From Clostridium sediminicola (GTDB lineage Bacteria; Bacillota; Clostridia; Clostridiales; Clostridiaceae), in the NCBI RefSeq assembly GCF_050402865.1, contig NZ_BAABMF010000007.1, forward strand, positions 8,141 to 72,140: DNA of 64,000 nt. The letters are read 5' to 3'. The notes beneath the pieces are model-generated. The model made no database searches. It had not been told where the DNA came from and worked only from the letters and a program-made list of their open reading frames with translations. The translations under genes and the position numbers were made by a program. Of this stretch, positions 1,154 to 63,742 are shown piece by piece; position 1 is the first letter of the stretch; every line of letters starts with the position of its first letter.

Positions 1154-1519
1154 CTATTTAGCCATACCTCTATGAGCAGGTCCTGGAGTACTTATCTCTT
1201 TTAAATCCCCATTTAAGTAAGCTTCGATAGCTTTTTCTACTGGTTGTTCATCGCATGAAAAGATTTTAACATCTGAACCATCTAATATTTTGTAAGCATT
1301 AGGACCAGCAAAACCAGTAATTACTATTTCAACTCCATGATCAACAGCTTGTTGTGCTGCACTAATTCCAGCTCCTTGAGTGGCAGTCACACCTGAATTT
1401 TCTTCTACTAAATATTCTCCTGTTTCAGAATTATAGATTTGAAAATATGAACATCTCCCAAATCTTGAGTCTACGTTTGAATTTTTTTCTTTTCCGAATG
1501 ATGATACTAATATTTTCAT
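1154..1519 (-). CDS. NifB/NifX-family (dinitrogenase FeMo-cofactor-binding domain) small protein
   Basis: 121 aa with the typical NifX/NafY-domain pattern (MKILVSS...SRFGRC.YF.IY....GV.ATQGAGI.AAQ...GV..VITG..GPNA...L). It is co-oriented and tightly spaced with the two MinD-ferredoxin ATPase genes. Confidence 0.75.
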   Translation of the reverse strand: MKILVSSFGKEKNSNVDSRFGRCSYFQIYNSETGEYLVEENSGVTATQGAGISAAQQAVDHGVEIVITGFAGPNAYKILDGSDVKIFSCDEQPVEKAIEAYLNGDLKEISTPGPAHRGMAK

Positions 1520-3817: not shown

Positions 3818-3906
3818 TTCACAGTGCACAATTCACAATTATGCTGGATTGTGCATTATATATATCATCCAAGAAGTTCATCTATATATACGAAAGGAGA
3901 TATAAT

Positions 3907-4578
3907 ATGAAACGAATAATCAGGCTATTTCTAGTACTTTTATTAACTTTTTCTTTTTCAGCCTGTAGTTCTTCTACGGTAATAGATAACCAGCAAAATT
4001 TAAAAGCAACAAGTAATTCAGTATCAGAAACACCAGAAGAAGAATCTTTTAAGTATAATCCATATTGTTTGCCAGAAAACGGAAAAGAATATCTTGGAGA
4101 TCATTTAAAAGATTTTAATTCTGTTATTACCGCTCTTTTAAATGGTGATACTCAAGTTATACTTGAAACTATTGATTCAAAGAAAGAATTTGAAACTCTT
4201 CGTCGTGCTGTTACCATTTTTTATATTCCTAAAAATTCGTTATATGATTATAGGTATTATGACGGAAATGGACCTTTTTCCTTTGATGAAAAGACTAAAA
4301 CTTTGACAATAGGCTATAGTTATTCAAAAGAAAATCACATAAAAGCAAATGAAGAATTTGCGCAGATTATAGAACAAATTTTCAATGATAATGTAACGGA
4401 TATAAATAATAAATTCCAAACAGCAAAAGAACTTTATTTATATGTTGTAAATAACACTGAATATGTACTAGACCCAGCAAACTTAGATACCTATGAGGCA
4501 TTTACATTACACAAAGCTTACTGCCAGACTTATTCTAAATGGAATAAATTATTTAAGACCATTCAATTCACTGATTAA
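3907..4578 (+). CDS. hypothetical lipoprotein
   Basis: MKRIIRLFLVLLLTFSFSACSS is a signal peptide with a lipobox (FSAC), and GGAGAT precedes the ATG at 3907. The ORF-track start at 3841 is judged an artefactual extension. Confidence 0.55.
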   Translation: MKRIIRLFLVLLLTFSFSACSSSTVIDNQQNLKATSNSVSETPEEESFKYNPYCLPENGKEYLGDHLKDFNSVITALLNGDTQVILETIDSKKEFETLRRAVTIFYIPKNSLYDYRYYDGNGPFSFDEKTKTLTIGYSYSKENHIKANEEFAQIIEQIFNDNVTDINNKFQTAKELYLYVVNNTEYVLDPANLDTYEAFTLHKAYCQTYSKWNKLFKTIQFTD

Positions 4579-4680
4579 ACATAATAAAAGTTTCCTATGC
4601 ACTAGCGATAAATATAATGACTATTGGAAACAATCAACAAAGTAAGACAACCCTTACAATTAAAGCTCGCCGAAAAATCA

Positions 4681-4706
4681 AAAGCTTTCGCATTAGCGAA
4701 AGCTTT
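4681..4706. terminator. Hairpin AAAGCTTTCGC-atta-GCGAAAGCTTT followed by a U-run on the minus strand; probable hydF terminator
   Basis: Perfect 11-bp inverted repeat. On the minus strand it is followed by TGATTTTTCGG. Confidence 0.55.
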
Positions 4707-4750
4707 CCTTTACTGTAAACTGAGCACTGTCAACTGTAAACTGTCATAAT

Positions 4751-5986
4751 CTATTCTTCTTCCCAGACCATCCGAGCTAGTGGAAATGGTTTAAGTGCTC
4801 TATCAAGTATCCCATGTACATAAGCAATTAAAACACCATAATTAACAATAGGTACCCCAATTTCTTCTGCTTGGCCTATTCTATGCATCATTCCAGTTCT
4901 ATTAAGCATGCATCCTGCACAGTGAACAATTAATGCATATTCATCTATATTTTCAGGGAAAGACATACCACTTGTGTATTCAAATTCTATTTGCTTACCT
5001 GTTATTTGTCTTATCCATCTAGGAATCTTAACACTACCAATATCATCTGACTGTCTATGGTGAGTACAACCTTCAGATACAAGAATTTTATCTCCATCCT
5101 TTAATTTTGCAATAGCTTTCGCACCTCTAACTAGTTCAGGTAAATCACCTTTGTTTCTCGCAAGCAAAATTGAGAATGAAGTCATCAAGATATCCTTTGG
5201 AGTATCAGCCGATACCTTTAAAAAGGCTTGTGAATCAGTAATTACCATTTTAGGTTTTTTACCTAGATTCTCTAAAGTTTCTCTAAGCTCAAATTCCTTA
5301 GTTACAACAGCCATTGCATCACTTTCTAATATATCTCTTATAGTCTGTTGTTGTGGAAGAATTAGTCTTCCCTTTGGAGCTGCTTTATCAATTGGAGTAA
5401 CAAGCACTACAAAGTCTCCAGGAGAAATCAAATCTCCTACTATTTTAAATTTATCTTCTTCTTCTGGAACTGATTTAGCCAAAGCTTCTTTTAATTCATT
5501 TATCCCTTTTTTAGAATTTGCACTAGTTGCAATAACTTTGCATTTAAGTTTTTTCTGCAATTCTTTAATTTCATTCTTTGTGATTTCAGTTAGATCTATT
5601 TTGTTTAAAACCACAATAACTGGAACTTTCTTAGCTTTTATCTGCTCTAATATATCCACATCATAATCAGTTACCCCAATAGTTCCATCCATTATTAGTA
5701 AAGCTATATCGGTTTTATTAAGTACTTCTATTGTTTTCTTCTTTCTTAATTCTCCTAGCTCACTAATATCATCAAGTCCCGCTGTATCTATTAATACGAC
5801 TGGCCCTAAAGGCAATAATTCCATTGATTTATATACAGGGTCTGTAGTAGTCCCTTTAACATCTGATACTAAGGCTAATTCTTGACCCGTTACAGCATTT
5901 ATAATACTTGATTTACCTGCATTAGTTTTTCCGAATAAAGCAATATGCACTCTATTTGCACGAGGTGTTCCATTCAATCCACTCAT
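4751..5986 (-). CDS. hydF: [FeFe]-hydrogenase H-cluster maturation GTPase HydF
   Basis: N-terminal GTPase G1-G4 motifs (GKTNAGKSS, DTAG, NKID). The C-terminal cluster-binding motifs CTHH...HCAGC match the conserved CxHx(n)HCxxC of HydF. Length is 411 aa. Confidence 0.8.
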   Translation of the reverse strand: MSGLNGTPRANRVHIALFGKTNAGKSSIINAVTGQELALVSDVKGTTTDPVYKSMELLPLGPVVLIDTAGLDDISELGELRKKKTIEVLNKTDIALLIMDGTIGVTDYDVDILEQIKAKKVPVIVVLNKIDLTEITKNEIKELQKKLKCKVIATSANSKKGINELKEALAKSVPEEEDKFKIVGDLISPGDFVVLVTPIDKAAPKGRLILPQQQTIRDILESDAMAVVTKEFELRETLENLGKKPKMVITDSQAFLKVSADTPKDILMTSFSILLARNKGDLPELVRGAKAIAKLKDGDKILVSEGCTHHRQSDDIGSVKIPRWIRQITGKQIEFEYTSGMSFPENIDEYALIVHCAGCMLNRTGMMHRIGQAEEIGVPIVNYGVLIAYVHGILDRALKPFPLARMVWEEE

Positions 5987-7411
5987 TTAATTTCCTCCCT
6001 TTTTCCCTGGTGTTCCAGCACTAGTAACTCCATACGGATTTAAGATATTTTCTAGTTCTTCTTTTGAAAACAATTCCTCATCTTCTAAAGCTTTCTTAAT
6101 AGTTTTTCCTTCTTTCATAGCTTTTTTAGCTATTTCCGCTGCTTTGTCATATCCAATATAATTAACAACTGCTGTGATTAATGAAGTAGAGTTTTGTAAA
6201 TTTTCATTACACTTCTCCACATCTACAGAAATATTATTAATACATTTATCTTTAAATTTATTTACCACACTATCCATAAGTTCTAGTGATTCCAATAAAC
6301 AGTGAGATATTAATGGTCCAAAAGCATTCAATTGTAGTTGCCCACTATAAGCAGCTGTTGTAATAGCACTATCATTAGCGATAATCTTCATGGAAACTTG
6401 AGCAACCATTTCAGGAATAACTGGATTAACTTTACCTGGCATTATAGATGAACCTGCTTGAACTGAAGGTAAAATTATTTCACCAATACCACCTTTAGGC
6501 CCTGAGTTCAATAATCTTAAATCATTTGAAATCTTCATAAAATTTACTGCCGCAGATTTCAATAATCCTGACACTTCCACAAATACGTCCATATTTTGAG
6601 TAGTATCTATAGGATAATCACTTCTAGCCATTCCAAGCCCTGTCAGCGACTGAATATAATCTGTTACAATATAAATATATTTTTGAGAAGCATTGATACC
6701 AGTACCAACTGCAGTCCCTCCAATATTCATCTCTCTAAGTCTTTCTTCAACTTTATATATTCTCCACCTATCTCTAGCTATTGCCTTTGCATATGCTCCA
6801 AATTCCTGTCCAACCATTATAGGAACTGCATCCATTAACTGAGTTCTACCTAGCTTAATAATATCCGCAAATTCATTTTCCTTTTCCTGAAGAGTTTCTT
6901 GCAACGCTGCAAAACTTTTACTCAACTTTCTTATTAATTTAATAGCTGCTATTCTAAGTGAAGTAGGATAAACATCGTTTGTAGACTGACTTAAATTAAC
7001 ATGCCCAATGGGATGAATAATATCATATCTACCCTTTTCTTCTCCTATTATTTCAAGAGCAATGTTAGCTACAACTTCATTAACATTCATATTAGTAGAA
7101 GTTCCTGCTCCCCCTTGATATGGATTAACCCTAAACTCATCATCAAAATGTCCATCCAAGATTTTATCACATGCCTCTACAATAGCGTCTGCAATCTTAC
7201 TATCCATTTCCTTTAATCTTTTATGAGCCATAGCTGCTGCTTTTTTCACCGTAACCATTGCATATATTAAATTTAAATTTACTGTACTCTTATCTATACT
7301 AAAATTTTCTAGTGCCCTTGCAGTATGAATACCATAATATACACTAGAATGAATTCTAAGCTTCCCAAGGGAATCTTTTTCAATTCTATAATTTCCCGAT
7401 AATTCTCCCAT
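5987..7411 (-). CDS. aspA: aspartate ammonia-lyase (aspartase), fumarase/aspartase family
   Basis: GSSIMPGKVNPV family signature. The N-terminal region is collinear with E. coli AspA (VKKAAAMA.K.L; YQGGAGTS.NMN.NEV.ANI.LE). The stop codon abuts the hydF ATG. Confidence 0.85.
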   Translation of the reverse strand: MGELSGNYRIEKDSLGKLRIHSSVYYGIHTARALENFSIDKSTVNLNLIYAMVTVKKAAAMAHKRLKEMDSKIADAIVEACDKILDGHFDDEFRVNPYQGGAGTSTNMNVNEVVANIALEIIGEEKGRYDIIHPIGHVNLSQSTNDVYPTSLRIAAIKLIRKLSKSFAALQETLQEKENEFADIIKLGRTQLMDAVPIMVGQEFGAYAKAIARDRWRIYKVEERLREMNIGGTAVGTGINASQKYIYIVTDYIQSLTGLGMARSDYPIDTTQNMDVFVEVSGLLKSAAVNFMKISNDLRLLNSGPKGGIGEIILPSVQAGSSIMPGKVNPVIPEMVAQVSMKIIANDSAITTAAYSGQLQLNAFGPLISHCLLESLELMDSVVNKFKDKCINNISVDVEKCNENLQNSTSLITAVVNYIGYDKAAEIAKKAMKEGKTIKKALEDEELFSKEELENILNPYGVTSAGTPGKKGGN

Positions 7412-7510
7412 ACTTCTTCCTCCGTGAAATCAGCTAAATTTTATACTTCTTTTGCTAATTATAATTTTAACAAATAAGTAGCCCTTCTTCAATCAGATAA
7501 TTTAAGCATA

Positions 7511-7540
7511 AAAAAAAGAGCTGTAATTCGCTCTATTTTA
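7511..7540. terminator. Short hairpin flanked by A and T runs (AAAAGAGC-tgtaattc-GCTCTaTTTT), bidirectional terminator-like
   Basis: Read directly from the sequence. It lies between the araD-like gene end and the aspA start. Confidence 0.4.
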
Positions 7541-7541
7541 A

Positions 7542-8234
7542 TTAGTATTTCTGACCATAATAAGCATCAACGCCATGTTTTCTTAAAAAATGTTTATCTA
7601 ACATATAGTTTTCTATTTCTGTTTGTTCTTTATTTAAAGTTAAAGTCCTATATGCCATTTTTGCAACTTCTTCCATAACTACAGCATTATGGACAGCTAC
7701 CATCGGATTTTTCCCCCATGCAAATGGTCCATGGTTATAAACTATAACCCCCGGAACTGCAACAGCATCCATTCCACTAAATCTTTCAACTATTACATTT
7801 CCAGTCTCTAATTCATATTCATTTTCAACTTCTTCTTTTGTCATTTTTCGAGTACAAGGTATTGTTCCATAAAAATAGTCGGCATGTGTGGTACCAAAAC
7901 AAGGTATTTCCTTTCCTGCTTGTGCCCAACTTGTAACCCAAGGAGAGTGAGTATGTACAACTCCACCCAGTTCTGGGAAAGCTTTGTATAAAACAAGATG
8001 AGTTGGCGTGTCCGATGAGGGGTTCAGTTCACCTTCCACAACATTTCCTTCTAAATCTATAACTACCATATCGCTAGCTATCATATTATCATAAGAAACT
8101 CCACTTGGTTTAATTACAACCAATCCCTCTTCTCTATCAATCCCACTCACATTACCCCAAGTGTAAGTAATTAAACCTCTCTTTGGTAGTTCAAGATTTG
8201 CCTTTAGTACCTTTTCTTTTAATCCCTCTAACAT
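7542..8234 (-). CDS. L-ribulose-5-phosphate 4-epimerase (AraD/SgbE/UlaF class II aldolase family)
   Basis: Collinear with AraD: ...[28 protein letters not shown]...HTHS. Length is 230 aa. Confidence 0.85.
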
Positions 8235-8405: not shown

Positions 8406-9248
8406 TTAGTCAAATTTTGATCTTAAAAAATTACATGCAAATTCTAATTCTTTTTTCCAATCAGAGTTTTCTTTATACCAAAACTCTCCTGTAAACATAT
8501 TAACACCTGATTTTCTTAACTCTTTTATAACCCTTTCAAATTCAACATGACCAGTGCCAAATGGAACTTCTCTAAATATACCTGGGATAGTTTCTTTCAA
8601 ATGTACAGCTACAACTTTTCCTATTCCTTTAGATATATCATCTATAACATTAGTGTTATACATCTTTGATGCGTTTGTGATATTACCTATATCTGGATAA
8701 ACATTCAAATACGGTGAATTAATCTTTTCCACATATCTCATAGCTTTTTCAACAGTATTCATGAATTCCGTTTCCATTGTTTCAAAACCTAGAAGAACTC
8801 CTTTTTTTGCTGCATATTCTACACTTTCTTTTAAATTCATACCGAAACGTTCTATTGTTTCAGGTGAAGATTCTTCATAATAGACATCATACCCTGCTAT
8901 TTGAATTATTCTAATCCCTATATCACTTGCAAAATCAATAGCTTTTCTCATTATTTCCATACCCTTATTGACTGTTGATTCAAAATTACTCCCTAATGGA
9001 TATTTTCTATGTCCACTTAAGCACATTGTTTTTATAGGCATTTCCATTTTATACATTGCATCTACTAATTCTTTTTTATCATCATAACTCCAATAAAGTC
9101 TTTCTAGTTTCTCATCAGTTTCATCAATACTAATTTCCATAAAATCAAAACCCGCAGATTTTCCTGCTTTTAATTTTTCTTCTAACGAAAGATAATTTGG
9201 CATTGATTTCTCATATACACCCAATAGATATGTCATAAAAACCTCCAT
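8406..9248 (-). CDS. L-ribulose-5-phosphate 3-epimerase-like sugar-phosphate isomerase/epimerase (UlaE/SgbU type, xylose-isomerase-like TIM barrel)
   Basis: LGVYEKS...EEKL..AK..GFDF.E.SIDE motif arrangement as in UlaE. The true start is possibly the internal Met at 9236. Confidence 0.7.
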   Translation of the reverse strand: MEVFMTYLLGVYEKSMPNYLSLEEKLKAGKSAGFDFMEISIDETDEKLERLYWSYDDKKELVDAMYKMEMPIKTMCLSGHRKYPLGSNFESTVNKGMEIMRKAIDFASDIGIRIIQIAGYDVYYEESSPETIERFGMNLKESVEYAAKKGVLLGFETMETEFMNTVEKAMRYVEKINSPYLNVYPDIGNITNASKMYNTNVIDDISKGIGKVVAVHLKETIPGIFREVPFGTGHVEFERVIKELRKSGVNMFTGEFWYKENSDWKKELEFACNFLRSKFD

Positions 9249-9263
9249 TAAATTAACAAGTCT

Positions 9264-10775
9264 TTAGAATTTTTTCCATAAACTATCCAAAACTTGAGAA
9301 GTTTCTTTATATAATTCAAATTTAGATTGATAGATTTTAACATTTTCCCTAATAGGTTCTACTCGCTGTTTAATTTTAACTAATTTATTAGCTGCATCTT
9401 TTAAGTTTTCAAATACTCCTGCTGCTACTCCTGCGGCCATGGCAGCTCCTAATGCCCCTAATTCCTTTGTTTCAATAATTTCAATAGGTAAATTGAGTAC
9501 ATCTGCAAATATTTGAACCCAAACTTTAGAATTTGCAGCTCCTCCAGCCAGTCTTACTGATTTAGGTTTTGAACGATTCATAAAGAGTTTTTCAATATGG
9601 ATCTTATGACAAAAAACTACTCCCTCAAAAACTGAACGAGCTATTTGTTCTTTTGTATGGGAACTATCCATTCCAATAAAAGATGCTTTAGCCTGAGGAT
9701 TGTAATTTGAACCAAAAATATAAGGTAAAAATATAATGTTCTGTTCATCAGGTTTAACAGATTCCACCATTCCATTAATTATTTCGTAAACACTTATTCC
9801 TCTTTTTTCAGCTAATGCTTTTTCTTCTTGCATAAATTTATTTAAGAACCATTCATTATTAGCAGCAGACGTAGGACTACATTCTTCTACCAGGTAGTAA
9901 CCAGGAATACAATATAGTGAATTCATCATCACGGTTTTATTAAGAACTGGCTCCGTTGCAATATATTCATTGATACTCCATGTGCCTGCAATTACGCAAA
10001 GATTTTCTTCATCAGTTATATCCATAGCAATAGCACATGCATCAATATCAAACATTCCAGCGGCAACTGGTGTACCTATAGCAAGACCAGTTTTTTTACT
10101 AGTTTGAGGTGTAATATAACCTGATACCTCTGTTGAATATTTTAATGGAGGCAATTTGTCATATATATCTTCTAATCCAAAATCACACAATAGCTCTTTG
10201 TCATATTTTGCTTCTCTAATATTTACAAAGTTAGATCCTGAAATGTCAGTAATTTCAGCATTAGCCTCTCCTGTAAGTTTGAATCTGATATAATCCTTAA
10301 CACCAAATATCCATTGCGTATTTTGAATAACTTCAGGTTCATTATCCTTTAACCAACTGACTAGAGATACTGGTTGGCACGCTAAAACTTTTTGACAAGT
10401 TTTTTCAAAAATTTTCTCAGCAGTACCATCCTTTTGCCATTTTTCCGGATACATATATGCCCTTGTATCAGTTGAAACAATACCTTTATATGCAGGTTTC
10501 TTATCTTTTCCCCATAAATAAAGGCCTTTTCCATGCCCTGAAAGTGATAATCCTAAAATCTCCCTTGGTTCTATTTTTGCATTTTCTATTGCTCTTTTTA
10601 TGACTGAACAATTAACCTCCCATAAAACATCCATGTCTCGCTCTGTACGCCCTTCTCCAGGGGTAATTAACTCAACTTGTTCATATGCTGTAGCTACTGT
10701 ATTTCCATCAATATCAAAAATAACTGCCTTTGTATTTGTCCCACCATTATCTAGACCTAATAAATATTTTCCCAT
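9264..10775 (-). CDS. FGGY-family carbohydrate kinase (L-xylulokinase-like)
   Basis: LGLDNGGTNTKAVIFD N-terminal actin-fold motif. Length is 503 aa. Its context with the two epimerases resembles sgbK/lyxK. Confidence 0.75.
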   Translation of the reverse strand: MGKYLLGLDNGGTNTKAVIFDIDGNTVATAYEQVELITPGEGRTERDMDVLWEVNCSVIKRAIENAKIEPREILGLSLSGHGKGLYLWGKDKKPAYKGIVSTDTRAYMYPEKWQKDGTAEKIFEKTCQKVLACQPVSLVSWLKDNEPEVIQNTQWIFGVKDYIRFKLTGEANAEITDISGSNFVNIREAKYDKELLCDFGLEDIYDKLPPLKYSTEVSGYITPQTSKKTGLAIGTPVAAGMFDIDACAIAMDITDEENLCVIAGTWSINEYIATEPVLNKTVMMNSLYCIPGYYLVEECSPTSAANNEWFLNKFMQEEKALAEKRGISVYEIINGMVESVKPDEQNIIFLPYIFGSNYNPQAKASFIGMDSSHTKEQIARSVFEGVVFCHKIHIEKLFMNRSKPKSVRLAGGAANSKVWVQIFADVLNLPIEIIETKELGALGAAMAAGVAAGVFENLKDAANKLVKIKQRVEPIRENVKIYQSKFELYKETSQVLDSLWKKF

Positions 10776-10809: not shown

Positions 10810-11598
10810 CTATAATTTTTTATCCACCGCTTCAATTTCACAAAGTAATAATTTGCATATTACCTCATTGCCAGCAATAATAGATACATTTCTATCATCT
10901 CTAAAGTGAATTATATCTCCACCGGCTTCATGAACTAAAAGTATTCCTGCTGCAACATCCCAAGTCTTTACATCTACTTCCCAATATCCATCAAAATATC
11001 CTGCTGCAACATATGAAAGGTCAATAGCCGCTGCACCACATCTCCTGAAGCCTCTTATTTTAGGAATAATTTTCGATGCATAAGAAACATTATTCACTTC
11101 ATTAATTGACCTATCGTAAGGAAACCCACTGGCTACAATTGATTCATTTAATTTATTTTTACATCCTACTTCTAATTTTCTTTCATTTAAAAATGCGCCT
11201 TCACCTTTTATTGCGGAGAATATTTCATCCATAACAGGTACATAAACAACTCCTAATACTGTTTCATTTTTATATTGGAGTGCTATAGAGATTCCAAACC
11301 AAGGTATCCCATTAGCATAGTTATTCGTACCATCAAGAGGATCAATAATCCAAAGGTAATCTGATTCATTTTCAAAAATCCCACTTTCTTCTGAAAGTAT
11401 AGCATGTTCAGGATAAGTATTCTTAATATGATTTAGTATTATATCTTCTGAAAGCTTATCTACTTCTGTTACTAAGTCTATACAAGTGGACTTTGAATCA
11501 ATTAAAAGAAATTTCTTTCTAAAGTTAGTAAGTTGAACACTGCCTACTTCTTTAGCAAGGGCTTTTATGTCAGACATCACTTTATATAAATTTTCCAT
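10810..11598 (-). CDS. inositol monophosphatase-family phosphatase
   Basis: WIIDPLDGTNNY and the downstream WDVAAG motif of the IMPase/FBPase fold. Confidence 0.8.
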   Translation of the reverse strand: MENLYKVMSDIKALAKEVGSVQLTNFRKKFLLIDSKSTCIDLVTEVDKLSEDIILNHIKNTYPEHAILSEESGIFENESDYLWIIDPLDGTNNYANGIPWFGISIALQYKNETVLGVVYVPVMDEIFSAIKGEGAFLNERKLEVGCKNKLNESIVASGFPYDRSINEVNNVSYASKIIPKIRGFRRCGAAAIDLSYVAAGYFDGYWEVDVKTWDVAAGILLVHEAGGDIIHFRDDRNVSIIAGNEVICKLLLCEIEAVDKKL

Positions 11599-11630
11599 GA
11601 TTCGCCTCCTAACTTACAACTAATGATTTT

Positions 11631-13166
11631 TTAATTTCTTATACTATTTAACGCTGACATATTATCTTTTAAATTAACGTAAACTTTCTTATATTCTTCG
11701 AAAATTTCATCATATAGTTTTATATTTTCTGGATTAGGTTCTATTGTACTATCAAATTCTAACCATTCAGATATTATACTTGAATCTTCAAAAACTCCAG
11801 TGCCTAAGCCTGCTAATAAAGCATCTGCTAATGGTGCTTCAACGTCATTTTTTATGATTTTCACTGGTTTTCCTGTAACATCAGCAAAAATTTGTGGCCA
11901 TTGCTTTGATTTGGATACTCCACCTACAAGAATAATTTCTTTGTCTAACTTCACACCCGTTCCATCTACCATTTCCATGTTATGACGTAATGAATAAGCT
12001 ACGCCTTCCATAAATGCTTTATATAAGTGGCCCTTGTGATGAACTAAACTTAGGCCTAATATTGTTCCTCTTGCTTTACTATCCCATATTGGACTTCTTT
12101 CACCCATGAAGTAAGGAAGTAAAAGTAAACCTTCTGAACCTGCTGGTACATCTTTTGATTTTTCTTCTAACAATGCATAGGCATTAACTCCAGTTTCTTT
12201 CTCTTGAGCTAATTCTTCTCCTCCTAAAGCATCTCTAAACCATCTAACTACAGCTCCAGCAGTTGCTGCTCCACCAAATGTATAGATTTTATTTTTTGAA
12301 TCTATTGTATGAGGCATACTTACTAGATTTTCAGAAAGATTGGGCTCTTCAGTTACAAAACCCCAACACATTGAAGTTCCTGTCATTGCAACATGATTTC
12401 CTTCATTAAAAGCTCCTGCACCTACTGTAGCTACTGGTGCATCAACACCTCCACAGATAATTGGAGTACCAACTTTTAATCCTGTTCTTTTAGCTGTTTC
12501 TTCAGTAATTCCTGCCACAATTTCAGTACACTCAACTAATCTTTCAGGGAAAAATTCAACTGGTACTCCTAATTTATCAAGCATATTAGCAGACCATTTT
12601 CTTTCCTTTAAATCATATACTCCACCAATATTTCCTGCTGAAGAATGATCTACTGCAACTTCTCCAGTTAGTTTATAAACTATGTATGATGCTGGCGGCA
12701 ATAAGTATTTTATTTTGTCCCAAATATCAAGATTGTTTTTCATCCAAAGAATTTTTGTAAATCCAAAATATGAATTAACTGAATTACCTGTAACTTGGAA
12801 TAATTCATCTAAATCAATATTTTCTTTAACCCATTTAACTTCTTCTTCTGCTCTACGATCCATCCATATTAAACATGGTGCTAAAGGATTCATTTCTTTA
12901 TCAACTGGTATCCCAGAACCACCATACAAACTACTAATAGCTACACCTTTTATATCTTCTATGTTAACTTTTGATTGGTCAACTACTCCCTTTATTGTTG
13001 CAAAGGTTGCATCCACCCAAGGTTCAGGCCATTGTTGAGCCCATGAAGGTTTAGGTGTTTCAACATCATAACCTTTATAATTGTGTGCTAACACATCACC
13101 AGTATCATTTATTAGTACTGCTTTTGTTCCTTGTGTTCCAATATCTACACCAATTACATATTTCAT
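11631..13166 (-). CDS. FGGY-family carbohydrate kinase (xylulokinase-like)
   Basis: IGVDIGTQGTKAVL N-terminus and GGGS/GG.SKS C-terminal motifs. Length is 511 aa. Confidence 0.8.
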   Translation of the reverse strand: MKYVIGVDIGTQGTKAVLINDTGDVLAHNYKGYDVETPKPSWAQQWPEPWVDATFATIKGVVDQSKVNIEDIKGVAISSLYGGSGIPVDKEMNPLAPCLIWMDRRAEEEVKWVKENIDLDELFQVTGNSVNSYFGFTKILWMKNNLDIWDKIKYLLPPASYIVYKLTGEVAVDHSSAGNIGGVYDLKERKWSANMLDKLGVPVEFFPERLVECTEIVAGITEETAKRTGLKVGTPIICGGVDAPVATVGAGAFNEGNHVAMTGTSMCWGFVTEEPNLSENLVSMPHTIDSKNKIYTFGGAATAGAVVRWFRDALGGEELAQEKETGVNAYALLEEKSKDVPAGSEGLLLLPYFMGERSPIWDSKARGTILGLSLVHHKGHLYKAFMEGVAYSLRHNMEMVDGTGVKLDKEIILVGGVSKSKQWPQIFADVTGKPVKIIKNDVEAPLADALLAGLGTGVFEDSSIISEWLEFDSTIEPNPENIKLYDEIFEEYKKVYVNLKDNMSALNSIRN

Positions 13167-18471: not shown

Positions 18472-19059
18472 TTAATTACTTAAAATTTCACTAGCCTTTA
18501 TTATTTCCTTAGCTATGTCAATCATTTTTTTATTCTTATCTCTACTCATTTTTTGCAATCGCTTCATTGCATCATCTTCTCTTAAACTAAATCTATCCAT
18601 TAAAATTCCTTTAGCTTTCTCTATATATTTACGCCGTTTAAGTGCATTTTGAGTATCGTTAAGCTCACTCTTTATTTTTTCAAATTCCTCATATTTTGAC
18701 ATAGTAATTTCAATAGCAACTTTTAAATCTTGGATATCTATAGGCTTGATTAAATAATTAAACACTCCTTGTTTTGATGCTTTTTCAATTAGTTCTCTAT
18801 CATGATATCCACTTACAATTATACTTGGAATAATCAATTGTTCATTAAGCTTTTTAATTGCTTCAATTCCATCTAAAAGTGGCATATTAATATCAGTTAT
18901 TATTAAATCTGGTTTGTTTTTTCTTGCAATTTCTACAAGTTCATTACCATCGATAGCCTCACCGATAACTTCATGACCAAGTTGTTTTAAATTAGCAGAT
19001 AAACCCATTAGACATAAATATTCATCTTCAGCTATCAAAATTCTTAATGGTTTTTCCAC
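18472..19059 (-). CDS. ANTAR-domain response regulator (receiver + ANTAR RNA-binding antiterminator; EutV/AmiR/NasT type)
   Basis: The receiver domain carries the phospho-acceptor Asp (LIITDINMP). The C-terminal ANTAR motif reads IEKAKGILMDRFSL.EDDAMKRLQKMSRDKNKKMIDIAKEII. Confidence 0.85.
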   Translation of the reverse strand: MEKPLRILIAEDEYLCLMGLSANLKQLGHEVIGEAIDGNELVEIARKNKPDLIITDINMPLLDGIEAIKKLNEQLIIPSIIVSGYHDRELIEKASKQGVFNYLIKPIDIQDLKVAIEITMSKYEEFEKIKSELNDTQNALKRRKYIEKAKGILMDRFSLREDDAMKRLQKMSRDKNKKMIDIAKEIIKASEILSN

Positions 19060-19078: not shown

Positions 19079-20962
19079 TTAATTATATTTCTTATATGTC
19101 ACAAAAACCTTATCATTCATCAACTTTATTTCTACTTTCGTACCTTTTTCTAATGGAATAAACTCTATACTCCCTTTAAATTCGTATTTTGCAATTGATG
19201 AGACAATAGATACACCTAAACTATCCATATTATTTTTTTCAAAATCTTTTGGTAATCCAACCCCATTATCTTCCACTGATAATAAAACAACATCTTTTAG
19301 ACGTTTACATCTCACAGCAATAATTCCCTTGCTCTCACCAATAAAAGCATGTTTCAAACAATTACTAATTAATTCGTTTATTATTAAAGCAATTGAAGTA
19401 GCTTTATTATAAGGTATAAATATATCATCTAACTCTAAACATATATCTAACTCTACATTCATAGATTTAAAAAAACTTGAAATTCTTACTACTATATCCT
19501 TTATATTTATAATACTTCTCCCTAATTTATCTGTAGCCAAAAGATCATGAACCGCAGCAATACTCTTTATGCGTGAAATAATATTATCAAGAATATTATC
19601 TAACTCATAACTTTTTTCTTTCTCTCCTACTTTCTTCTGCAAAGCTATAAGATTAACAATCGATTGAAGATTGTTTTTAATTCTATGATGACTCTCTTGA
19701 AGCAAAGCTGACCTACCCATCAACCTTGTATCTTCAATTGCAATTGCAGCATGCCGTACAAAAGCAGATAAGTATTTCGCTTCATCTCTGGAATGAGCAT
19801 ATAGTCTTTCGTAGTATATTTGAATAATTCCAGTTACACGAGATCTTATCAAAACAGGAACACAAATGATTGTCTTGACTTTATTGTTTAATTCAAAAAT
19901 TGAGAGATAATCTTTTTCACGTTTATTTGAATAATATAAATCATTTTTATGAACTACATTCAGAATAAATTCTTCTTTTAACTTGGCTTGTAATTCCTCT
20001 TTAATTTTAAATTCCAAAGTATCTATAATAGTATTAGTACTCTCATCTATTAAATGAATAGTACAGCCATCCGCATTCATAAATTTAATAACTTGTTTAG
20101 ATAATAATAGCAATACATCTTTTAACTCATATTCGGAAGTCAAAAATTCAGCAGCTCTAAATACTGCATCTAAAACTTCTTCACTCTCATAATCTATTTT
20201 TGTTTCACTTTTTTTATAATTAAATTTTCCTAAAAGATTTAATACTTCCTGAGGATTCTTTTTTGCTTCATCTGCTATAAAAGTTTTTTTCACTACACCT
20301 TCTGATAAAATAGAAATTCTGTCCCCAACTTTTAAAGCTTCTTCCCATTGTTTTGTGACATATAAAATACTTTTGCCTTCATTTTTACATTTATCAATAA
20401 GTTGGTATAACTTTTGAACATACTCTGAACTCAGATCTTCAGTAGGGTTGTACATAATTATAAGTTCTGGATTATTGTAAAATATTTTTGCTATGTAAAC
20501 TATTTTTTTTTGCTCACTTGATAATTTTGAGACTTTTTGCTTATAATTGACACTAAAATTTAAGTCTTCTAATATTCTCATTGCATTTTCTTTAGATCTT
20601 TTCCAATTAATAAAAGGAAAAGGTCTTTTTTTAGGAAAATAATTCAACACTATATTTTCGTAAACTGATAGTGTATCTACTAATGTAGACTCCTGAAATA
20701 AAAATGAGATATCTTTATTGGTATTAATTTGATTCATATCTAAATTTTCTTCTTTAAATATTACTTTACCTAATACATCCTTTTCTTCTCCCGAGATAGA
20801 TTTAATAAATGTTCTTGTAATAGAATCATTGCTCCCTACCAACGCGTGTACTTCACTAGATTTTATGTTTAGATTTAAACCTTTTAGATTATCTCCTACC
20901 AAATTAACACTTTTTAGATTTTCAATTTTGAAAATAAAGTCTCCCAAAGCAAACACCTTCAC
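19079..20962 (-). CDS. cytoplasmic sensor histidine kinase with an N-terminal degenerate ABC nucleotide-binding-like domain, a GAF domain, and HisKA_2 and HATPase_c domains
   Basis: Residues 1 to about 230 are collinear with the second NBD of RbsA-type ATPases, but Walker A is GSNDSITRT, Walker B is IIMYNPTEDL (no Asp-Glu) and the signature motif is LSSEQKK. A central GAF-like region follows. The H-box ESHHRIKNNLQSIVNLIALQ is HisKA_2/HWE type. HATPase_c motifs are ELISNCLKHAF and DNGVGLP. No TM segments are present. Confidence 0.8.
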   Translation of the reverse strand: MKVFALGDFIFKIENLKSVNLVGDNLKGLNLNIKSSEVHALVGSNDSITRTFIKSISGEEKDVLGKVIFKEENLDMNQINTNKDISFLFQESTLVDTLSVYENIVLNYFPKKRPFPFINWKRSKENAMRILEDLNFSVNYKQKVSKLSSEQKKIVYIAKIFYNNPELIIMYNPTEDLSSEYVQKLYQLIDKCKNEGKSILYVTKQWEEALKVGDRISILSEGVVKKTFIADEAKKNPQEVLNLLGKFNYKKSETKIDYESEEVLDAVFRAAEFLTSEYELKDVLLLLSKQVIKFMNADGCTIHLIDESTNTIIDTLEFKIKEELQAKLKEEFILNVVHKNDLYYSNKREKDYLSIFELNNKVKTIICVPVLIRSRVTGIIQIYYERLYAHSRDEAKYLSAFVRHAAIAIEDTRLMGRSALLQESHHRIKNNLQSIVNLIALQKKVGEKEKSYELDNILDNIISRIKSIAAVHDLLATDKLGRSIINIKDIVVRISSFFKSMNVELDICLELDDIFIPYNKATSIALIINELISNCLKHAFIGESKGIIAVRCKRLKDVVLLSVEDNGVGLPKDFEKNNMDSLGVSIVSSIAKYEFKGSIEFIPLEKGTKVEIKLMNDKVFVTYKKYN

Positions 20963-39932: not shown

Positions 39933-41425
39933 AACTGCCCCCTATTATTTGGTATATACAATTTAAAACTAGTACCTTTATCAAGAATACTTTCTACATC
40001 AATAACTCCTCCAAAAGCTTCAATAACCTTTTGACAATAGGCTAGTCCTATTCCCCAATTTGAAACAGTAGCTTTTGTTGAGTAAAATGGTTGGAATATT
40101 TTATCTATATCTTTTTTATCCATACCGCAACCGTTATCATGAATTTCAATCACTCCATATTCTACCTTCTCATCTATCACAACAGTAATTTCAGGGCTAT
40201 CCATAAAACTACAAGCTTCTATAGAATTTCTTATAATATTTTCCATAACCTTTTTGAACTCTTTCTTATCAATATTTAAATAAATAGTTCTTTTCTCTAT
40301 AACATCAAAGGTTATACTAGGATTCATCTTTTTAAAAGTTTCTATCATTTTAAGAACAATCTTATTTACATCAACAAAACTGTACTTTAGCTTTATCTTA
40401 CTCATGTTTTTCGATAATTGACTAATTTGTTCTATAGTCTCATTACATATTCTAATTATTTCATTTTGTAATAACTCGTCATCTTTCTTTTTAGATTCCT
40501 CAGCTAAGTATCTTATTGCAATTAGTTGATTTTTAACTGAATGAGAAAATATCCTTCCTCCAATATTTGCTGTATGTAATTGTTTTTCAAAATCTATATT
40601 ATTTTTTCGTACATTTATTTCAAATATATTGTATTTCAATATTGCATAGATTAATAAAATTACAGATACTACTGATATTATTGTTATTCCATTATAAAGA
40701 ATCTCATTATAAGGAATGCTTATATTTGATAACTGTCCAAATCTGCTAAAAATTATCTTTTGATTAGGATACCAATAAAATAAAACAAGAAATAGAAAAT
40801 GTATAGGAATAATTCCAATAAACATATACTTGAATTTTTTTCTAAGTTTCGGTATGATTCTACTTTCAATATATAACAGAACAATAATGCTGGTTACGAG
40901 GTAAATTTTCATTAGTGAATTGGAAACTAAAGCTAATGACTTTATTATAGAATTCACCTTGATATAATAATCTGAATTTACATATCCATTAAAAATCACT
41001 CTATTATTTATCTTATATATAACCTTTAGTACATCTGGATCAAACAATATTATTAATACTAAAGGAAAAACTGCTAATACCAAATAAGCTACTTTCTTAG
41101 AGTGTTTGCTCACAATAAATGAAACTGAAAAACAAATAGCTCCGTATATATATATGGCAGTACCTATGTTCATTATTCTATATTGGTCATTTATATCAAG
41201 CTTCAAAAAATAATTTATTTTCCATATATAATTTGAAATGTTAGAATAAAGTCCGTTTACAGTGTAGTGAGAACTACTTAAATACTCTGTATAAAAAGCT
41301 AATCCAAACATAGCTAATGAAAATCCAATAAGCATAGTGCTAAGCCAAACTATATTTTTTGTTCTATAATTTTTTACTATTAGAAAAATATTAAAAATAA
41401 TATATGTGAAAAATAACCATATCAT
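39929..41425 (-). CDS. polytopic membrane sensor histidine kinase (6-7 TM N-terminal domain; AgrC/HPK10-like H-box; HATPase_c)
   Basis: About 260 aa of TM helices. H-box FSHSVKNQLIAI, N-box IIRNSIEA, G-boxes HDNGCGM and NWGIGL. The start codon overlaps the response-regulator gene by 4 nt. Confidence 0.75.
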   Translation of the reverse strand: MIWLFFTYIIFNIFLIVKNYRTKNIVWLSTMLIGFSLAMFGLAFYTEYLSSSHYTVNGLYSNISNYIWKINYFLKLDINDQYRIMNIGTAIYIYGAICFSVSFIVSKHSKKVAYLVLAVFPLVLIILFDPDVLKVIYKINNRVIFNGYVNSDYYIKVNSIIKSLALVSNSLMKIYLVTSIIVLLYIESRIIPKLRKKFKYMFIGIIPIHFLFLVLFYWYPNQKIIFSRFGQLSNISIPYNEILYNGITIISVVSVILLIYAILKYNIFEINVRKNNIDFEKQLHTANIGGRIFSHSVKNQLIAIRYLAEESKKKDDELLQNEIIRICNETIEQISQLSKNMSKIKLKYSFVDVNKIVLKMIETFKKMNPSITFDVIEKRTIYLNIDKKEFKKVMENIIRNSIEACSFMDSPEITVVIDEKVEYGVIEIHDNGCGMDKKDIDKIFQPFYSTKATVSNWGIGLAYCQKVIEAFGGVIDVESILDKGTSFKLYIPNNRGQL

Positions 41426-59533: not shown

Positions 59534-60145
59534 TTAATTAATTATAGTCGCTCTTCTTCCTTCTATCCTAATTCTTTTTTCTGAAATCAGTTTGATTGCT
59601 TCTGGAAGAGCTATATGTTCTTGAACTAAAACTCTTTTTTGTAATTCTTTTGGTGTATCTTTACTTTTAACTTCAACAGCCTTTTGCAAAATAATAACCC
59701 CAGTATCAGTTCCTTCATCCACAAAATGAACAGTACAGCCAGCAATTTTCACTCCGTATTCAATTGCTTTTTCGTGAACTTTGATACCATACATTCCTGC
59801 CCCACAGAAAGCTGGTATCAAAGAAGGATGAATATTTACTATCTTATTTTTAAATTTATTTAGTATATCCCCTTTTAAAATCGACAAAAACCCTGCTAAA
59901 ACAATCAAATCAACTTTCCCATCAATTACTTTTAGTATTTCATCAGATAAATTAGCCCCGTATTCTTTTTTATCTAAAGTAATACCTTTTATATTATGTT
60001 TTTCCGCTCGTTTTATAGCATAAGCCCCTTTTTTATCACAAATTACATATTCAATACTACAGTTCAAGTAACCATCCTCAATTCTATCTATAATTGATTG
60101 AAGATTACTTCCTCCCCCTGAGGCCAAAACTGCTATTTTAAACAT
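59534..60145 (-). CDS. purN: phosphoribosylglycinamide formyltransferase
   Basis: MFKIAVLASGGGSNLQSIID and the formyltransferase fold (HPSLIP.F.G). Confidence 0.9.
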   Translation of the reverse strand: MFKIAVLASGGGSNLQSIIDRIEDGYLNCSIEYVICDKKGAYAIKRAEKHNIKGITLDKKEYGANLSDEILKVIDGKVDLIVLAGFLSILKGDILNKFKNKIVNIHPSLIPAFCGAGMYGIKVHEKAIEYGVKIAGCTVHFVDEGTDTGVIILQKAVEVKSKDTPKELQKRVLVQEHIALPEAIKLISEKRIRIEGRRATIIN

Positions 60146-61128
60146 ACTTCCTTGCCTCCTGTTTGGACAAAACCAATCTCATAAGCTTTATCTCCAAGCT
60201 TTTTAAGTTCTTTTATAACTTCTTCTGAATCCTCTTTATTTATACATAACACAAATCCTATCCCCATATTAAAAGTATTATACATATGTTCTTCTTCAAC
60301 ACCTAAATCCATTAAGTAATTAAAAATTGGAGGTTTTTCAAATGAATCTTTAAAAATAACTGCAGTGAAATCATTTTTAAACATTCTAGGAATATTTTCA
60401 TAAAATCCTCCTCCAGTAATGTGAGCCATTCCTTTAATACTAAATTTCTTCATTATTTCTAATACACTTTTAACATAAATCTTAGTAGGTTCTAATAAAA
60501 CTTCACCAATTTTTTTTCCATTAAATTCTTCATCAAAATTAGTAATTAGTTTTCTTACTAAAGAAAAGCCATTGCTATGAACACCAGACGACTCTATTCC
60601 TATAAGTACATCGCCAGCTTCTATAGTGCTCCCATCTATTATGCTATCTTTTTCTACTGCACCTACACAAAAACCTGCTATATCATACTCACCTTTTTTA
60701 TAAAATCCAGGCATTTCAGCAGTTTCCCCACCAATCAAGGCAGAATTTGCCATAATACATCCTTCACTCACACCTTTAACAATGTCAGTTGCCGCATCTG
60801 CATCTAATTGTCCACAGGCCATATAATCTAAAAAGAATAAGGGTTCTGCACCATGGCACAAAATATCATTTACACACATTGCAACACAATCTATTCCTAC
60901 AGTATCATAAATACCCATTTCAAAAGCGATTTTTAACTTTGTTCCTACACCATCAGTACCTGACACTAATACTGGGTTCTTATAGTCCTTCAATTGATAC
61001 ATCCCAGCAAATGAACCTAAGTTATTTAATACCCCATCATTATATGTTTTTTCAACATGATTTTTCATCTGTGATACTGCTTTATAACCTTCTTCTATAT
61101 TGACACCAGCGTCCTTATAAGTGGCCAT
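60133..61128 (-). CDS. purM: phosphoribosylformylglycinamidine cyclo-ligase (AIR synthetase)
   Basis: PurM family pattern (DAGVNIEEG, GTDGVGTK, HITGGG). Confidence 0.9.
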   Translation of the reverse strand: MATYKDAGVNIEEGYKAVSQMKNHVEKTYNDGVLNNLGSFAGMYQLKDYKNPVLVSGTDGVGTKLKIAFEMGIYDTVGIDCVAMCVNDILCHGAEPLFFLDYMACGQLDADAATDIVKGVSEGCIMANSALIGGETAEMPGFYKKGEYDIAGFCVGAVEKDSIIDGSTIEAGDVLIGIESSGVHSNGFSLVRKLITNFDEEFNGKKIGEVLLEPTKIYVKSVLEIMKKFSIKGMAHITGGGFYENIPRMFKNDFTAVIFKDSFEKPPIFNYLMDLGVEEEHMYNTFNMGIGFVLCINKEDSEEVIKELKKLGDKAYEIGFVQTGGKEVCLK

Positions 61129-62550: not shown

Positions 62551-63261
62551 TTAGTTTTCCTTCCCAACCAATCTTTTTAAGATTTCTTCGTACGCCTCTT
62601 TTACGTCTCCCATATCTCTTCTAAATCTATCTTTATCTAACTTTTCATTAGTAGTAGCATCCCAAAATCTGCATGTATCAGGTGATATCTCATCAGCTAA
62701 TAAAATTTCTCCATTGTATCTTCCAAACTCAATTTTAAAGTCAATAAGTTTAATATTTTGCTTTAAGAAAAATTCTTTTAAAATATCATTAATTTTAGCA
62801 GTCATTTCGTACATGACATTTAACTCTTCAAAAGTAGCAGCACCCAATGCAACTGCATGATAATCATTGATTAATGGATCTCCTAAATCATCATCTTTGT
62901 AGCAAATTTCAAAAATTGTAGTGCTTAACTCAGTTCCTTCTTGAATATTTAGTCGTTTTGCCATACTACCTGCAGCAACATTTCTTACTATAACTTCTAA
63001 AGGCACTATTTCAACTCTTTTACAAAGTTGTTCTCTATCACTTAACTTCTTCTCGAAGTGAGTTTTTATTCCATTTTCTTTCAATAAATCAAAAATCATT
63101 GTTGTAATGCTATTATTTAAAATTCCCTTACTTTCGATTTGTGATTTTTTTTCCCCGTTAAATGCTGTTGCATCATCTTTGTAATAAATAATTACATGAT
63201 CTTTGTCATCTGCCTCAAAAATTTGCTTTGCTTTGCCCTCATATAACATTTTTCTATCCAT
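62551..63261 (-). CDS. purC: phosphoribosylaminoimidazole-succinocarboxamide synthase
   Basis: [11 protein letters not shown]-terminal motif of SAICAR synthetase. The start is the ATG at 63261 (MDRK), which avoids overlap with purE. Confidence 0.9.
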
Positions 63262-63262
63262 T

Positions 63263-63742
63263 TTATAACTCCACCCCTTCACTATTGTCACTAATAAATT
63301 TAGCTTTCATATCTATACGATATTGAATTAATTTTTCTTTAAGTTCTGGATATTTGATAGATAACATTTCCACCGCTAACATTCCTGCATTTGAAGAATT
63401 GTTAACGCCAACTACTGCTACTGGAATAGGTTTTGGCATTTGAACCATAGATAGAAGAGAATCAAACCCTTGCATTGCCGCATTAATAGGTACACCGATT
63501 ACTGGTAGTATTGTCTTAGAAGCAATAACTCCTGGAAGATGTGCTGCGAGTCCTGCTCCTGCTATAATACATTCAAATCCATCATCTTCAATTTTCTTAA
63601 GCACTTCAGATAGTTTTTCTGGAATTCTGTGAGCTGATAAAATATATGCTTTATATTCTATTGAGAATTCCTTAAGAATTTGTGCTGCCCCTTTCATTTT
63701 TTCAATGTCTGATCTACTTCCAAAAATAATAGCTACTTTCAT
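63263..63742 (-). CDS. purE: 5-(carboxyamino)imidazole ribonucleotide mutase
   Basis: [12 protein letters not shown]...GAG.AAHLPGV.AS.T..PVIGVP PurE family pattern. RBS GGGAGG. Confidence 0.9.

Follow-up and report, generated by a model that had tools for sequence, protein, structure and literature searches.

Organization of the aspA-hydF locus

Within the window (the whole 64-kb stretch of Clostridium sediminicola DNA that was analyzed), an aspartate ammonia-lyase-like gene (aspA) and the gene for the [FeFe]-hydrogenase maturation protein HydF lie side by side on the minus strand, where they constitute a stand-alone bicistronic operon (Table 1). The aspA stop codon (TAA, 5989-5987) directly abuts the hydF start codon (ATG, 5986-5984), leaving a gap of 0 nt, and judging only from this TAA-ATG junction, translation of the two genes is probably coupled. 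RNA spanning the junction is no more stable than shuffled sequence (z = +0.86), so nothing past a simple abutting stop and start is supported. Likewise, an Rfam E-value search of positions 4300-7900 returned zero matches to regulatory RNAs in the leader or at the junction.

Table 1. Genes and putative expression signals of the aspA-hydF operon (window coordinates).
Feature	Position	Strand	Description	Basis
hydF	4751-5986	-	411 aa; GTPase and scaffold for H-cluster maturation in [FeFe]-hydrogenase	ORF list and profile searches
aspA-like gene	5987-7411	-	474 aa; hyd-linked clade (clade II)	ORF list and profile searches
hydF Shine-Dalgarno	5994-5999	-	GGGAGG, inside the final aspA codons	direct sequence reading
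aspA Shine-Dalgarno	7419-7423	-	GGAGG, 7 nt ahead of the ATG at 7411	direct sequence reading
Sigma-70-type promoter-like site	7464-7492	-	TTGAAG-17-TAAAAT with TG extension	consensus match only
Terminator-like hairpin before aspA	7517-7534	-	5-bp stem, 8-nt loop, T8 tail	scan and fold
Intrinsic terminator after hydF	4680-4707	-	12-bp stem, 4-nt loop, TTTTGATTTTT tail	scan and fold

The promoter-like site lies some 50 nt ahead of the aspA start codon, and with 20 promoter-consensus matches in the region against 16 expected, its position is suggestive rather than proof. Farther upstream, the terminator-like hairpin appears to close the araD/L-ribulose-5-P epimerase sugar operon (araD is ORF 7542-8234; TIGR00760, 394 bits), thereby insulating aspA-hydF. 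At the other end of the operon, the terminator following hydF folds with a minimum free energy of -30.1 kcal/mol (z = -3.65), a stability reached by 0 of 200 shuffles. This element is palindromic and may therefore also terminate the convergent, plus-strand ORF 3841-4578.

The remaining maturation machinery was sought throughout the window. A tblastn search with 63 HydE and HydG sequences from related loci produced no match to hydE or hydG at E<=1e-5, and HydA queries yielded nothing besides one weak, 117-aa match. The latter (39944-40279) falls within a sensor histidine kinase and was rejected. Pfam and NCBIfam scans of 40 further window ORFs found nothing hydrogenase-related, while four ORFs toward the 3' end (59534-61128, 62551-63742) were covered by the tblastn test only. 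An earlier, sequence-only reading of this DNA had placed the aspA stop against the hydF ATG, taken the two genes as an operon with a hairpin terminator after hydF and a terminator-like hairpin before aspA, and reported hydE and hydG as absent from the 64 kb. Each of these observations holds, and the operon assignment draws on the abutting genes, the hydF Shine-Dalgarno sequence within aspA, the promoter-like site, and the flanking hairpins.

Identity of the gene products

HydF is a GTPase that serves as the scaffold for installing the dithiomethylamine (azadithiolate) bridge of the H-cluster's 2Fe subcluster. The protein encoded at this locus scores 589.9 bits against the TIGR03918 HydF equivalog (cutoff 325.55) and possesses all of the expected domains, namely the GTPase domain (PF01926) and the dimer and tetramer domains HydF_dimer and HydF_tetramer (PF18128, PF18133). 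The nucleotide-binding motifs G1, G3, and G4 are present as GKTNAGKS (19), DTAG (67), and NKID (128), respectively. The CxH...HCxxC motif for ligands of the [4Fe-4S] cluster is matched by CTH (307) and HCAGC (355), and its residues C307, H309, C356, and C359 are invariant in an alignment of 26 HydF sequences.

The aspA product scores 659.5 bits against NCBIfam NF008909 (subfamily "aspartate ammonia-lyase"; cutoff 510), so both gene names given in the sequence-only reading are borne out by profile searches. It consists of Lyase_1 (PF00206, 285.5 bits) and FumaraseC_C (PF10415, 64.1 bits) domains, the same fold family as the aspartases of E. coli (AspA; 1JSW) and Bacillus sp. YM55-1 (AspB; 1J3U), and AspB is its closest solved structure (445 bits). 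All three enzymes share the SS loop GSSIMPGKVNP, which in the window protein conforms to GSSxMPxKxN with its catalytic serine, and all three carry the full set of aspartate-binding residues. In the window protein, the catalytic and aspartate-binding residues are T104, S143, T144, N145, T190, S321, M324, K327, and N329. On these grounds, the enzyme is predicted to be an aspartase (EC 4.3.1.1).

Class II fumarases are homologues of the aspartases, and the window protein also matches the fumC model TIGR00979 (464.9 bits). That score is below the model's cutoff (664.75) and approximately 195 bits under that of the aspartase model, and solved fumarases reach at most 348 bits with the window protein, versus 445 for aspartase. 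Overall, fumarase models and solved fumarase structures trail their aspartase counterparts by roughly 100 to 195 bits. The residues point in the same direction; at the site of AspB T141, the window protein has Thr144 rather than the Ser of FumC, and the position of His188 in E. coli FumC is taken by Gln191. The caveat attached to the sequence-only reading, that the first gene might actually be a fumarase paralog, is thus answered by the higher aspartase scores and by the Thr and Gln found in place of the FumC residues.

A separate clade of hyd-linked aspartases

Despite its aspartase features, the window protein differs from enzymes of the E. coli/Bacillus type. It shares only 43% identity with E. 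coli AspA, and its score of 554.7 bits on the E. coli-type equivalog model TIGR00839 is under the cutoff of 681.2, a shortfall that is consistent with its placement in a separate, hyd-linked clade. In a neighbor-joining tree (Kimura distances, computed with numpy), the aspartases linked to hydrogenase maturation genes are monophyletic and set apart from the E. coli/Bacillus-type clade in 100 of 100 bootstraps, and the window protein is placed inside the hyd-linked group, referred to here as clade II. In an NCBIfam scan run in alignment mode, which gives member counts only, all 24 aspartase members matched both aspartase models.

Clade II carries signature residues located away from the active site (E178, A210, W216, K220, E223, R224, E265, and E279), together with a clade-specific helix motif, RDRWRxYKxEERL. 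The window protein retains all of these residues with the exception of E265, which is replaced by Asp. The positions equivalent to AspB T101, S140, T141, N142, T187, S318, M321, K324, and N326 are invariant in 62 of 62 clade-II sequences, and with every known aspartate-binding and catalytic residue preserved in this way, the simplest expectation is the usual aspartase chemistry. Searches of the literature and the PDB for a clade-II aspartase found no characterized enzyme and no solved structure.

Conservation of the aspA-hydF linkage

Linkage was surveyed at 80 genome loci retrieved by means of an alignment of AspA, and the hyd gene labels were checked with TIGR03955, TIGR03956, and TIGR03959. 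The hydF gene lies within the flank at 53 of these loci, and at 46 the two genes are immediate neighbors, for the most part with aspA preceding hydF. This adjacency is seen at 46 of 62 clade-II loci, drawn from many phyla, and the junctions are typically tight, with an estimated gap of -26 to +16 nt at 30 of 38 aspA>hydF junctions. Among longer arrangements, hydE>hydG>aspA>hydF is the most frequent and occurs in Planctomycetota, Calditrichota, Hydrogenedentota, and others. AspA and HydF homologues were also found recurrently on the same short contigs. A comparison of genomes for aspA-hyd adjacency had been put forward in the sequence-only reading as a means of checking it, and the outcome is clear-cut: a hyd maturase gene is found within 10 kb at 57 of 62 clade-II loci, whereas none is found at the 19 loci of the housekeeping, E. 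coli/Bacillus-type clade (Fisher p = 2.8e-14).

These counts confirm that the pairing of aspA and hydF is far beyond chance. The notion that the adjacency reflects chance or hitch-hiking, or that the first gene is a class II fumarase paralog, can be given almost no credence, and it is effectively refuted by the profile scores, the structure matches, the residues, and adjacency that recurs across many phyla. Taken as a whole, and as judged from their sequences, the hyd-linked aspartases form an ancient lineage of their own, one that keeps company with the genes for [FeFe]-hydrogenase maturation. The linkage is nonetheless not universal; in a metagenome sample, an aspA-like gene was present within 6 kb of hydF at 22 of 52 informative loci (42%), from which it follows that maturation does not need a linked aspartase.

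Gene fusions were also sought, as a sign of physical interaction between AspA and HydF. A phmmer search with HydF against 1.84 billion representatives gave 1028 matches at E<=1e-30, and a Pfam domain scan of the four longest (>560 aa) of the best 150 HydF representatives found no AspA-HydF fusion among them. One of the four is a HydF-radical-SAM fusion, one is a HydF-DHFR fusion, one has a long internal insert, and the remaining one has no extra Pfam domain.

The tight junctions and the fusion search both bear on whether clade II might be something other than a plain aspartase, such as a specialized maturation factor that takes another amino-dicarboxylate substrate, passes on NH3 while docked to HydF or the glycine-cleavage T-protein, or serves chiefly as a structural partner. 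A deep and distinct clade with full bootstrap support would be in keeping with such a role, as would signature residues and a helix motif of its own away from the active site, a window protein under the TIGR00839 cutoff, and the closeness of the junctions with hydF. Against these stand the invariance of all known aspartate-binding and catalytic residues and the absence of an AspA-HydF fusion among the four long proteins described above, and this departure from plain aspartase activity is considered distinctly improbable.

A proposed role in H-cluster bridge synthesis

The aspA-hydF pairing and a proposed role for it are already known from work published in 2024. Pagnier et al. (J Biol Chem 2024;300:107760; PMC11736057) described aspA in association with hydF and put AspA forward as the source of ammonium for the dithiomethylamine (DTMA) bridge, and the ammonium-supply model has since been restated (PNAS 2025; PMC12501116). 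In vitro, 15N-aspartate together with E. coli AspA was shown by ENDOR to label the DTMA bridgehead nitrogen, and NH4+ was found to stimulate the HydF GTPase (PMC11736057). The biochemistry given in the sequence-only reading, with HydF as the scaffold and with ammonium and serine-derived carbon as precursors of the azadithiolate, is correct. Its suggestion that the aspartase could be a dedicated ammonia source for this bridge is supported but not new, and the 15N-aspartate labelling that it recommended is the experiment already in print, in vitro with E. coli AspA and with a positive ENDOR result (PMC11736057).

It is likely that the AspA of the window pair likewise feeds NH4+ to bridge synthesis on HydF, as envisaged by Pagnier et al. 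In this scheme, AspA would convert L-aspartate to fumarate and NH4+. From this NH4+, lipoyl-H-protein, and methylene-THF derived from serine, the T-protein of the glycine-cleavage system would produce aminomethyl-lipoyl-H-protein. HydF would then use the latter, along with the HydE product, to form the S-CH2-NH-CH2-S bridge. NH4+ may also stimulate the HydF GTPase, which is gated by monovalent cations, and co-transcription with probably coupled translation would time ammonia production with HydF synthesis. That this clade-II enzyme supplies the bridge nitrogen in vivo would be an extension of literature evidence obtained in vitro with E. coli AspA; no in vivo test of aspartase-derived bridge nitrogen was found in the literature searched. 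Several points count against the ammonia-supply model. Glycine-cleavage and SHMT genes are found neither in the window nor among the 25 commonest conserved neighbor-gene clusters inspected, and linkage of aspA to hydF is not universal. Moreover, cells usually contain plenty of free ammonium, which makes the need for a dedicated source less obvious.

The presence of aspA inside hyd clusters had been noted even earlier, in genome papers of 2012 and 2016 (PMC3543383, PMC4794192), the authors of which offered a metabolic explanation for the aspartase or none. For example, the hndD2 cluster of Pelobacter carbinolicus contains an aspartate ammonia-lyase, and aspartate degradation was proposed to be coupled to hydrogen or formate release (PMC3543383). 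In Sulfurospirillum cavolei, the order is hydG-aspA-hydE-hydF, and D. vulgaris is cited in the same paper (PMC4794192). In both clusters, the aspartase resides among hydE, hydF, and hydG, and unlike in the window, the structural hydrogenase and all of the maturases are present.

The Pelobacter proposal lends itself to an explanation by metabolic co-regulation only, whereby a catabolic aspartase and hydrogenase maturation are expressed together because a single anaerobic program takes in the fermentation of aspartate, the respiration of fumarate, and the disposal of H2, and the ammonia released is not earmarked for the cofactor. Fumarate was also raised as an anaerobic electron acceptor in the discussion of Pagnier et al. 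(PMC11736057), and a linked aspA is missing from the majority of the hydF loci sampled. This explanation is nevertheless rather improbable. Across very different physiologies and phyla, aspA is placed amid the maturases (hydE>hydG>aspA>hydF) instead of among fermentation genes, and the pairing with hydF is kept where hydE, hydG, and hydA lie elsewhere, as in the window and in C. acetobutylicum, which likewise has an isolated pair (aspA-14 nt-hydF). Genes for fumarate reductase and a C4-dicarboxylate transporter are not among the 25 commonest neighbor clusters inspected, and the standing of the hyd-linked enzymes as a clade apart from E. coli/Bacillus-type aspartases argues for a specialized role.

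Relative to the work of Pagnier et al., the gene pair, the placing of aspA right beside hydF, and an ammonium role proposed to run through the glycine-cleavage T/H-protein route are all shared, and nothing essential differs beyond the lack of hydE, hydG, and hydA within the 64 kb. The window is thus one more example, in which a Clostridium carries the minimal, two-gene form of a linkage that provides genomic support for the ammonium/glycine-cleavage route, a case that Pagnier et al. (2024) have already argued and in part tested. In that study, AspA was detected at the level of Pfam domains only, the E. coli enzyme was assayed, and a separate clade went unreported. The one increment over published work is accordingly the separate clade of hyd-linked aspartases together with the linkage counts.

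It is tempting to go further and to regard the hyd-linked aspartases as an ancient, separate paralog that functions as a fourth factor dedicated to H-cluster maturation and is not interchangeable with the E. coli/Bacillus-type enzyme, although this suggestion is tentative and, on balance, doubtful. As one example, the RDRWRxYKxEERL helix might dock on HydF or the T-protein and either release NH3 on the spot or act as a gate on the GTPase of HydF. Were a fourth factor of this kind to exist, efficient hydrogenase maturation would require the clade-II aspartase in those organisms that carry one, a matter not addressed by the published in vitro work, in which an enzyme of the other clade was used. 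From a practical standpoint, in vivo tests or reconstitution of maturation should employ an aspartase of the hyd-linked clade, which is distinct in sequence from E. coli AspA. At present, annotation pipelines give the aspartases of both clades identical names.

The aspA-hydF Operon

The operon structure proposed in the sequence-only reading, in which aspA (aspartate ammonia-lyase) and hydF ([FeFe]-hydrogenase maturase) are abutting minus-strand genes with a hairpin on either side, is established here in every particular (see table). Read directly, the sequence leaves no spacer between the aspA TAA (5989-5987) and the hydF ATG (5986-5984), and translation of the two genes is probably coupled. 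A 245-aa ORF (3841-4578, plus strand), convergent with hydF and possibly served by its palindromic terminator (4680-4707), has no NCBIfam match and no Pfam match on record.

Features of the aspA-hydF operon and its flanks (window coordinates)
Feature	Position	Strand	Description
aspA	5987-7411	-	474 aa; NCBIfam NF008909 "aspartate ammonia-lyase", 659.5 bits (cutoff 510); Pfam Lyase_1 and FumaraseC_C
hydF	4751-5986	-	411 aa; HydF equivalog TIGR03918, 589.9 bits (cutoff 325.55); HydF dimerisation and tetramerisation domains
hydF Shine-Dalgarno GGGAGG	5999-5994	-	within final aspA codons; sequence read directly
Terminator 3' of hydF	4707-4680	-	12-bp stem, T-tail; fold z = -3.65, 0/200 shuffles as stable
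Hairpin upstream of aspA	7534-7517	-	T8 tail; weaker than post-hydF terminator; closes araD/L-ribulose-5-phosphate epimerase sugar operon
Promoter-like site TTGAAG-17-TAAAAT, TG extension	between the 7534-7517 hairpin and aspA	-	sequence scan

The absence of hydE and hydG from the 64 kb was borne out by tblastn with 63 HydE/HydG sequences from related loci, which found neither in the window (E<=1e-5). The sole window match of the HydA queries (117 aa at 31%; tblastn) falls within a sensor histidine kinase and was rejected. In a domain and family scan, 40 further ORFs proved unrelated to hydrogenase: they comprise genes for sugar utilisation and ABC transport, two-component systems, germination operons of the gerA type and an operon for purine biosynthesis. 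For four ORFs towards the 3' end (59534-61128, 62551-63742), coverage was by tblastn alone. With no other hyd genes in the window, aspA-hydF is an isolated two-gene unit, as in C. acetobutylicum, where aspA (470 aa) and hydF (411 aa) are separated by a 14-nt gap. The window adds a further instance of this minimal form in clostridia.

Aspartase or Fumarase

The assignment of the first gene to the aspartases by sequence, and the intactness of its predicted active site, are established by several comparisons. Its product scored higher against the aspartase profiles NF008909 (659.5) and TIGR00839 (554.7) than against fumC (TIGR00979; 464.9), and among solved structures it matched Bacillus AspB (1J3U) at 445 bits versus at most 348 for fumarases. 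Aligned with AspB and with the AspA and FumC of E. coli, the window protein retains all of the residues by which AspB binds or deaminates aspartate (T101, S140, T141, N142, T187, S318, M321, K324 and N326). Position 141 is Thr in the window protein and Ser in FumC, and the position of FumC His188 is occupied by Gln. Fumarase identity was rejected on these scores and residues, and a functional aspartase is the best-supported reading of the predicted product.

Conservation Across Genomes

Conservation of the arrangement is established by neighbourhood surveys. An alignment of 23 close AspA homologues was used to fetch 80 loci (43-65% identity, many phyla) from one-genome-per-species contigs. Searches with the window HydF (tblastn/blastp) placed hydF inside the 10-kb flank at 53 of these loci and directly adjacent at 46, and the estimated gap was -26 to +16 nt in 30 of 38 aspA>hydF junctions. 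Recurrent neighbours, from clustering of neighbouring ORFs with representatives checked against NCBIfam, were HydG, HydE, group-A [FeFe]-hydrogenase and a TM1266-type regulator; hydE>hydG>aspA>hydF was the most frequent order.

Several variants were also seen. Paenibacillus wynnii (locus L004) has hydG>hydF>aspA>hydF, with hydF paralogs (8786-9985 and 11424-12710) on either side of the aspartase gene; the upstream copy is 42% identical to the window HydF, yet is a full HydF (TIGR03918, 468 bits). The reversed order, hydF>aspA, marks a hyd-linked aspartase subclade (L018, L019, L020, L022, L029, L049 and L060) from Lachnospiraceae-like, Treponema, Victivallaceae and other MAGs, whose shorter aspartases (435-454 aa) diverge from the window protein over its final 20-40 residues or lack them. 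In Desulfovibrionaceae, a ~200-aa ORF X (L024 11511-12107; L051 11368-12048) occurs in the order aspA>X>hydE>hydF; the two copies lack an NCBIfam match and, on inspection, are apparently related. Finally, small proteins encoded between aspA and hydF in Bacteroidota (L047 11566-11925; L036 2432-2830 and 2979-3338; L023 14372-14689) have a hydrophobic N-terminus resembling a signal peptide and several copies of the motif K(S/A)EGC(A/S)G, with no family match.

Viewed from hydF, the link is strong without being obligatory. Twenty-six diverse HydF sequences were aligned to retrieve 80 metagenomic loci, a biased sample rich in human-gut contigs. Of these, 22 had an aspA-like gene within 6 kb (adjacent in 16) and 30 had none although each flank ran to 1.5 kb or more, the remainder being too short to judge; ~42% of informative loci are thus aspartase-linked.

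Two HydF fusions were encountered. In P0353 (566 aa; ENA metagenome, five contigs, longest 23,314 bp), HydF (8-400) is followed, almost without linker, by a C-terminal dihydrofolate reductase domain (DHFR_1, 405-561, 180 bits). No such fusion was described in the literature searched; as a Rosetta-stone-type fusion it would tie HydF independently to the one-carbon metabolism of tetrahydrofolate. P0298 (861 aa) joins HydF to a C-terminal HydE/HydG-type enzyme with radical-SAM and BATS domains; algae are known to have HydE-HydF fusions.

Two Aspartase Clades

In a distance-based NJ tree with E. coli FumC as the root, the aspartases fall into two groups. Clade I holds E. coli AspA, Bacillus AspB and 19 loci, and clade II (100/100 bootstrap replicates) holds the window protein and 61 loci. 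A hyd gene lies within 10 kb at 57/62 in clade II versus 0/19 in clade I (Fisher p = 2.8e-14), the loci being the 80 best among 600 or more matches to two peptide patterns from clade-II sequences, so that clade I is under-sampled. Of the five clade-II exceptions, one is a locus truncated directly after aspA. Chance placement beside hydF, or a fumarase paralog, is extremely improbable and effectively refuted. Mean identity is 53% inside clade II and 45% between clades; between the window protein and E. coli AspA it is 43%. Clade II is marked by eight residues that are conserved to at least 90% there but rare in clade I (E178, A210, W216, K220, E223, R224, E265 and E279). Five of these (A210, W216, K220, E223 and R224) fall within or next to a single stretch, whose motif is RDRWRxYKxEERL. 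The catalytic positions are all common to both clades.

Proposed Role in H-Cluster Maturation

The proposal that the aspartase supplies ammonia for the azadithiolate (dithiomethylamine) bridge is already in print. Pagnier et al. (J Biol Chem 2024;300:107760; PMC11736057) reported a close association of ammonia-lyase genes with hyd operons, ENDOR detection of 15N at the dithiomethylamine bridgehead from 15N-aspartate and E. coli AspA in a defined maturation system, and stimulation of the HydF GTPase by ammonium. The ammonium/aspartase model was repeated in PNAS 2025 (PMC12501116), and a 2016 paper (PMC4794192), citing D. vulgaris, had noted an aspartase gene inside hydG-aspA-hydE-hydF of Sulfurospirillum cavolei. 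The aspA-hydF feature is real, correctly read, biologically meaningful and already known. Because the 2024 analysis recognised AspA through its Pfam domain and limited its similarity networks to HydE and HydF, a separate hyd-linked clade is not described there (PMC11736057), nor was it in other literature found; that these aspartases form a distinct clade is the sole increment over published work.

We consider it probable that the operon-made aspartase feeds ammonium into bridge assembly on HydF. The operon would yield HydF and a functional aspartase together, and the latter would free NH4+ from aspartate. The glycine-cleavage T-protein would then combine NH4+, serine-derived methylene-THF and lipoyl-H-protein into aminomethyl-lipoyl-H-protein, which HydF would use to build S-CH2-NH-CH2-S as a bridge on the di-iron precursor derived from HydE. 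Mere metabolic co-regulation, with no dedicated maturation role, is unlikely, given the placement of aspA among maturase genes across diverse phyla and the separate clade of hyd-linked aspartases. The published in vitro chemistry used a clade-I enzyme, whereas the window aspartase belongs to clade II. That clade-II proteins have a specialised, non-generic role is also unlikely. We infer the ammonia-supply role in vivo, as well as any specificity that the clade-II enzyme may have.

Other Genes of the Window

Some 3.2 kb past hydF, in a separate transcription unit, a minus-strand gene (306-1136) encodes a P-loop protein with weak, sub-cutoff MinD and MrpORP matches and an inserted 4Fe-4S ferredoxin-type region. 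A small partner ORF (1154-1519, minus strand), with weak MrpORP matches only, comes after it, and the two are possibly an Fe-S cluster carrier pair. Elsewhere, an unusual 627-aa protein (19079-20962, minus strand) has an ABC-transporter ATPase domain at its N-terminus together with the histidine-kinase domains HisKA_2 and HATPase_c, and its gene adjoins that of an ANTAR-domain response regulator (18472-19059, minus strand).
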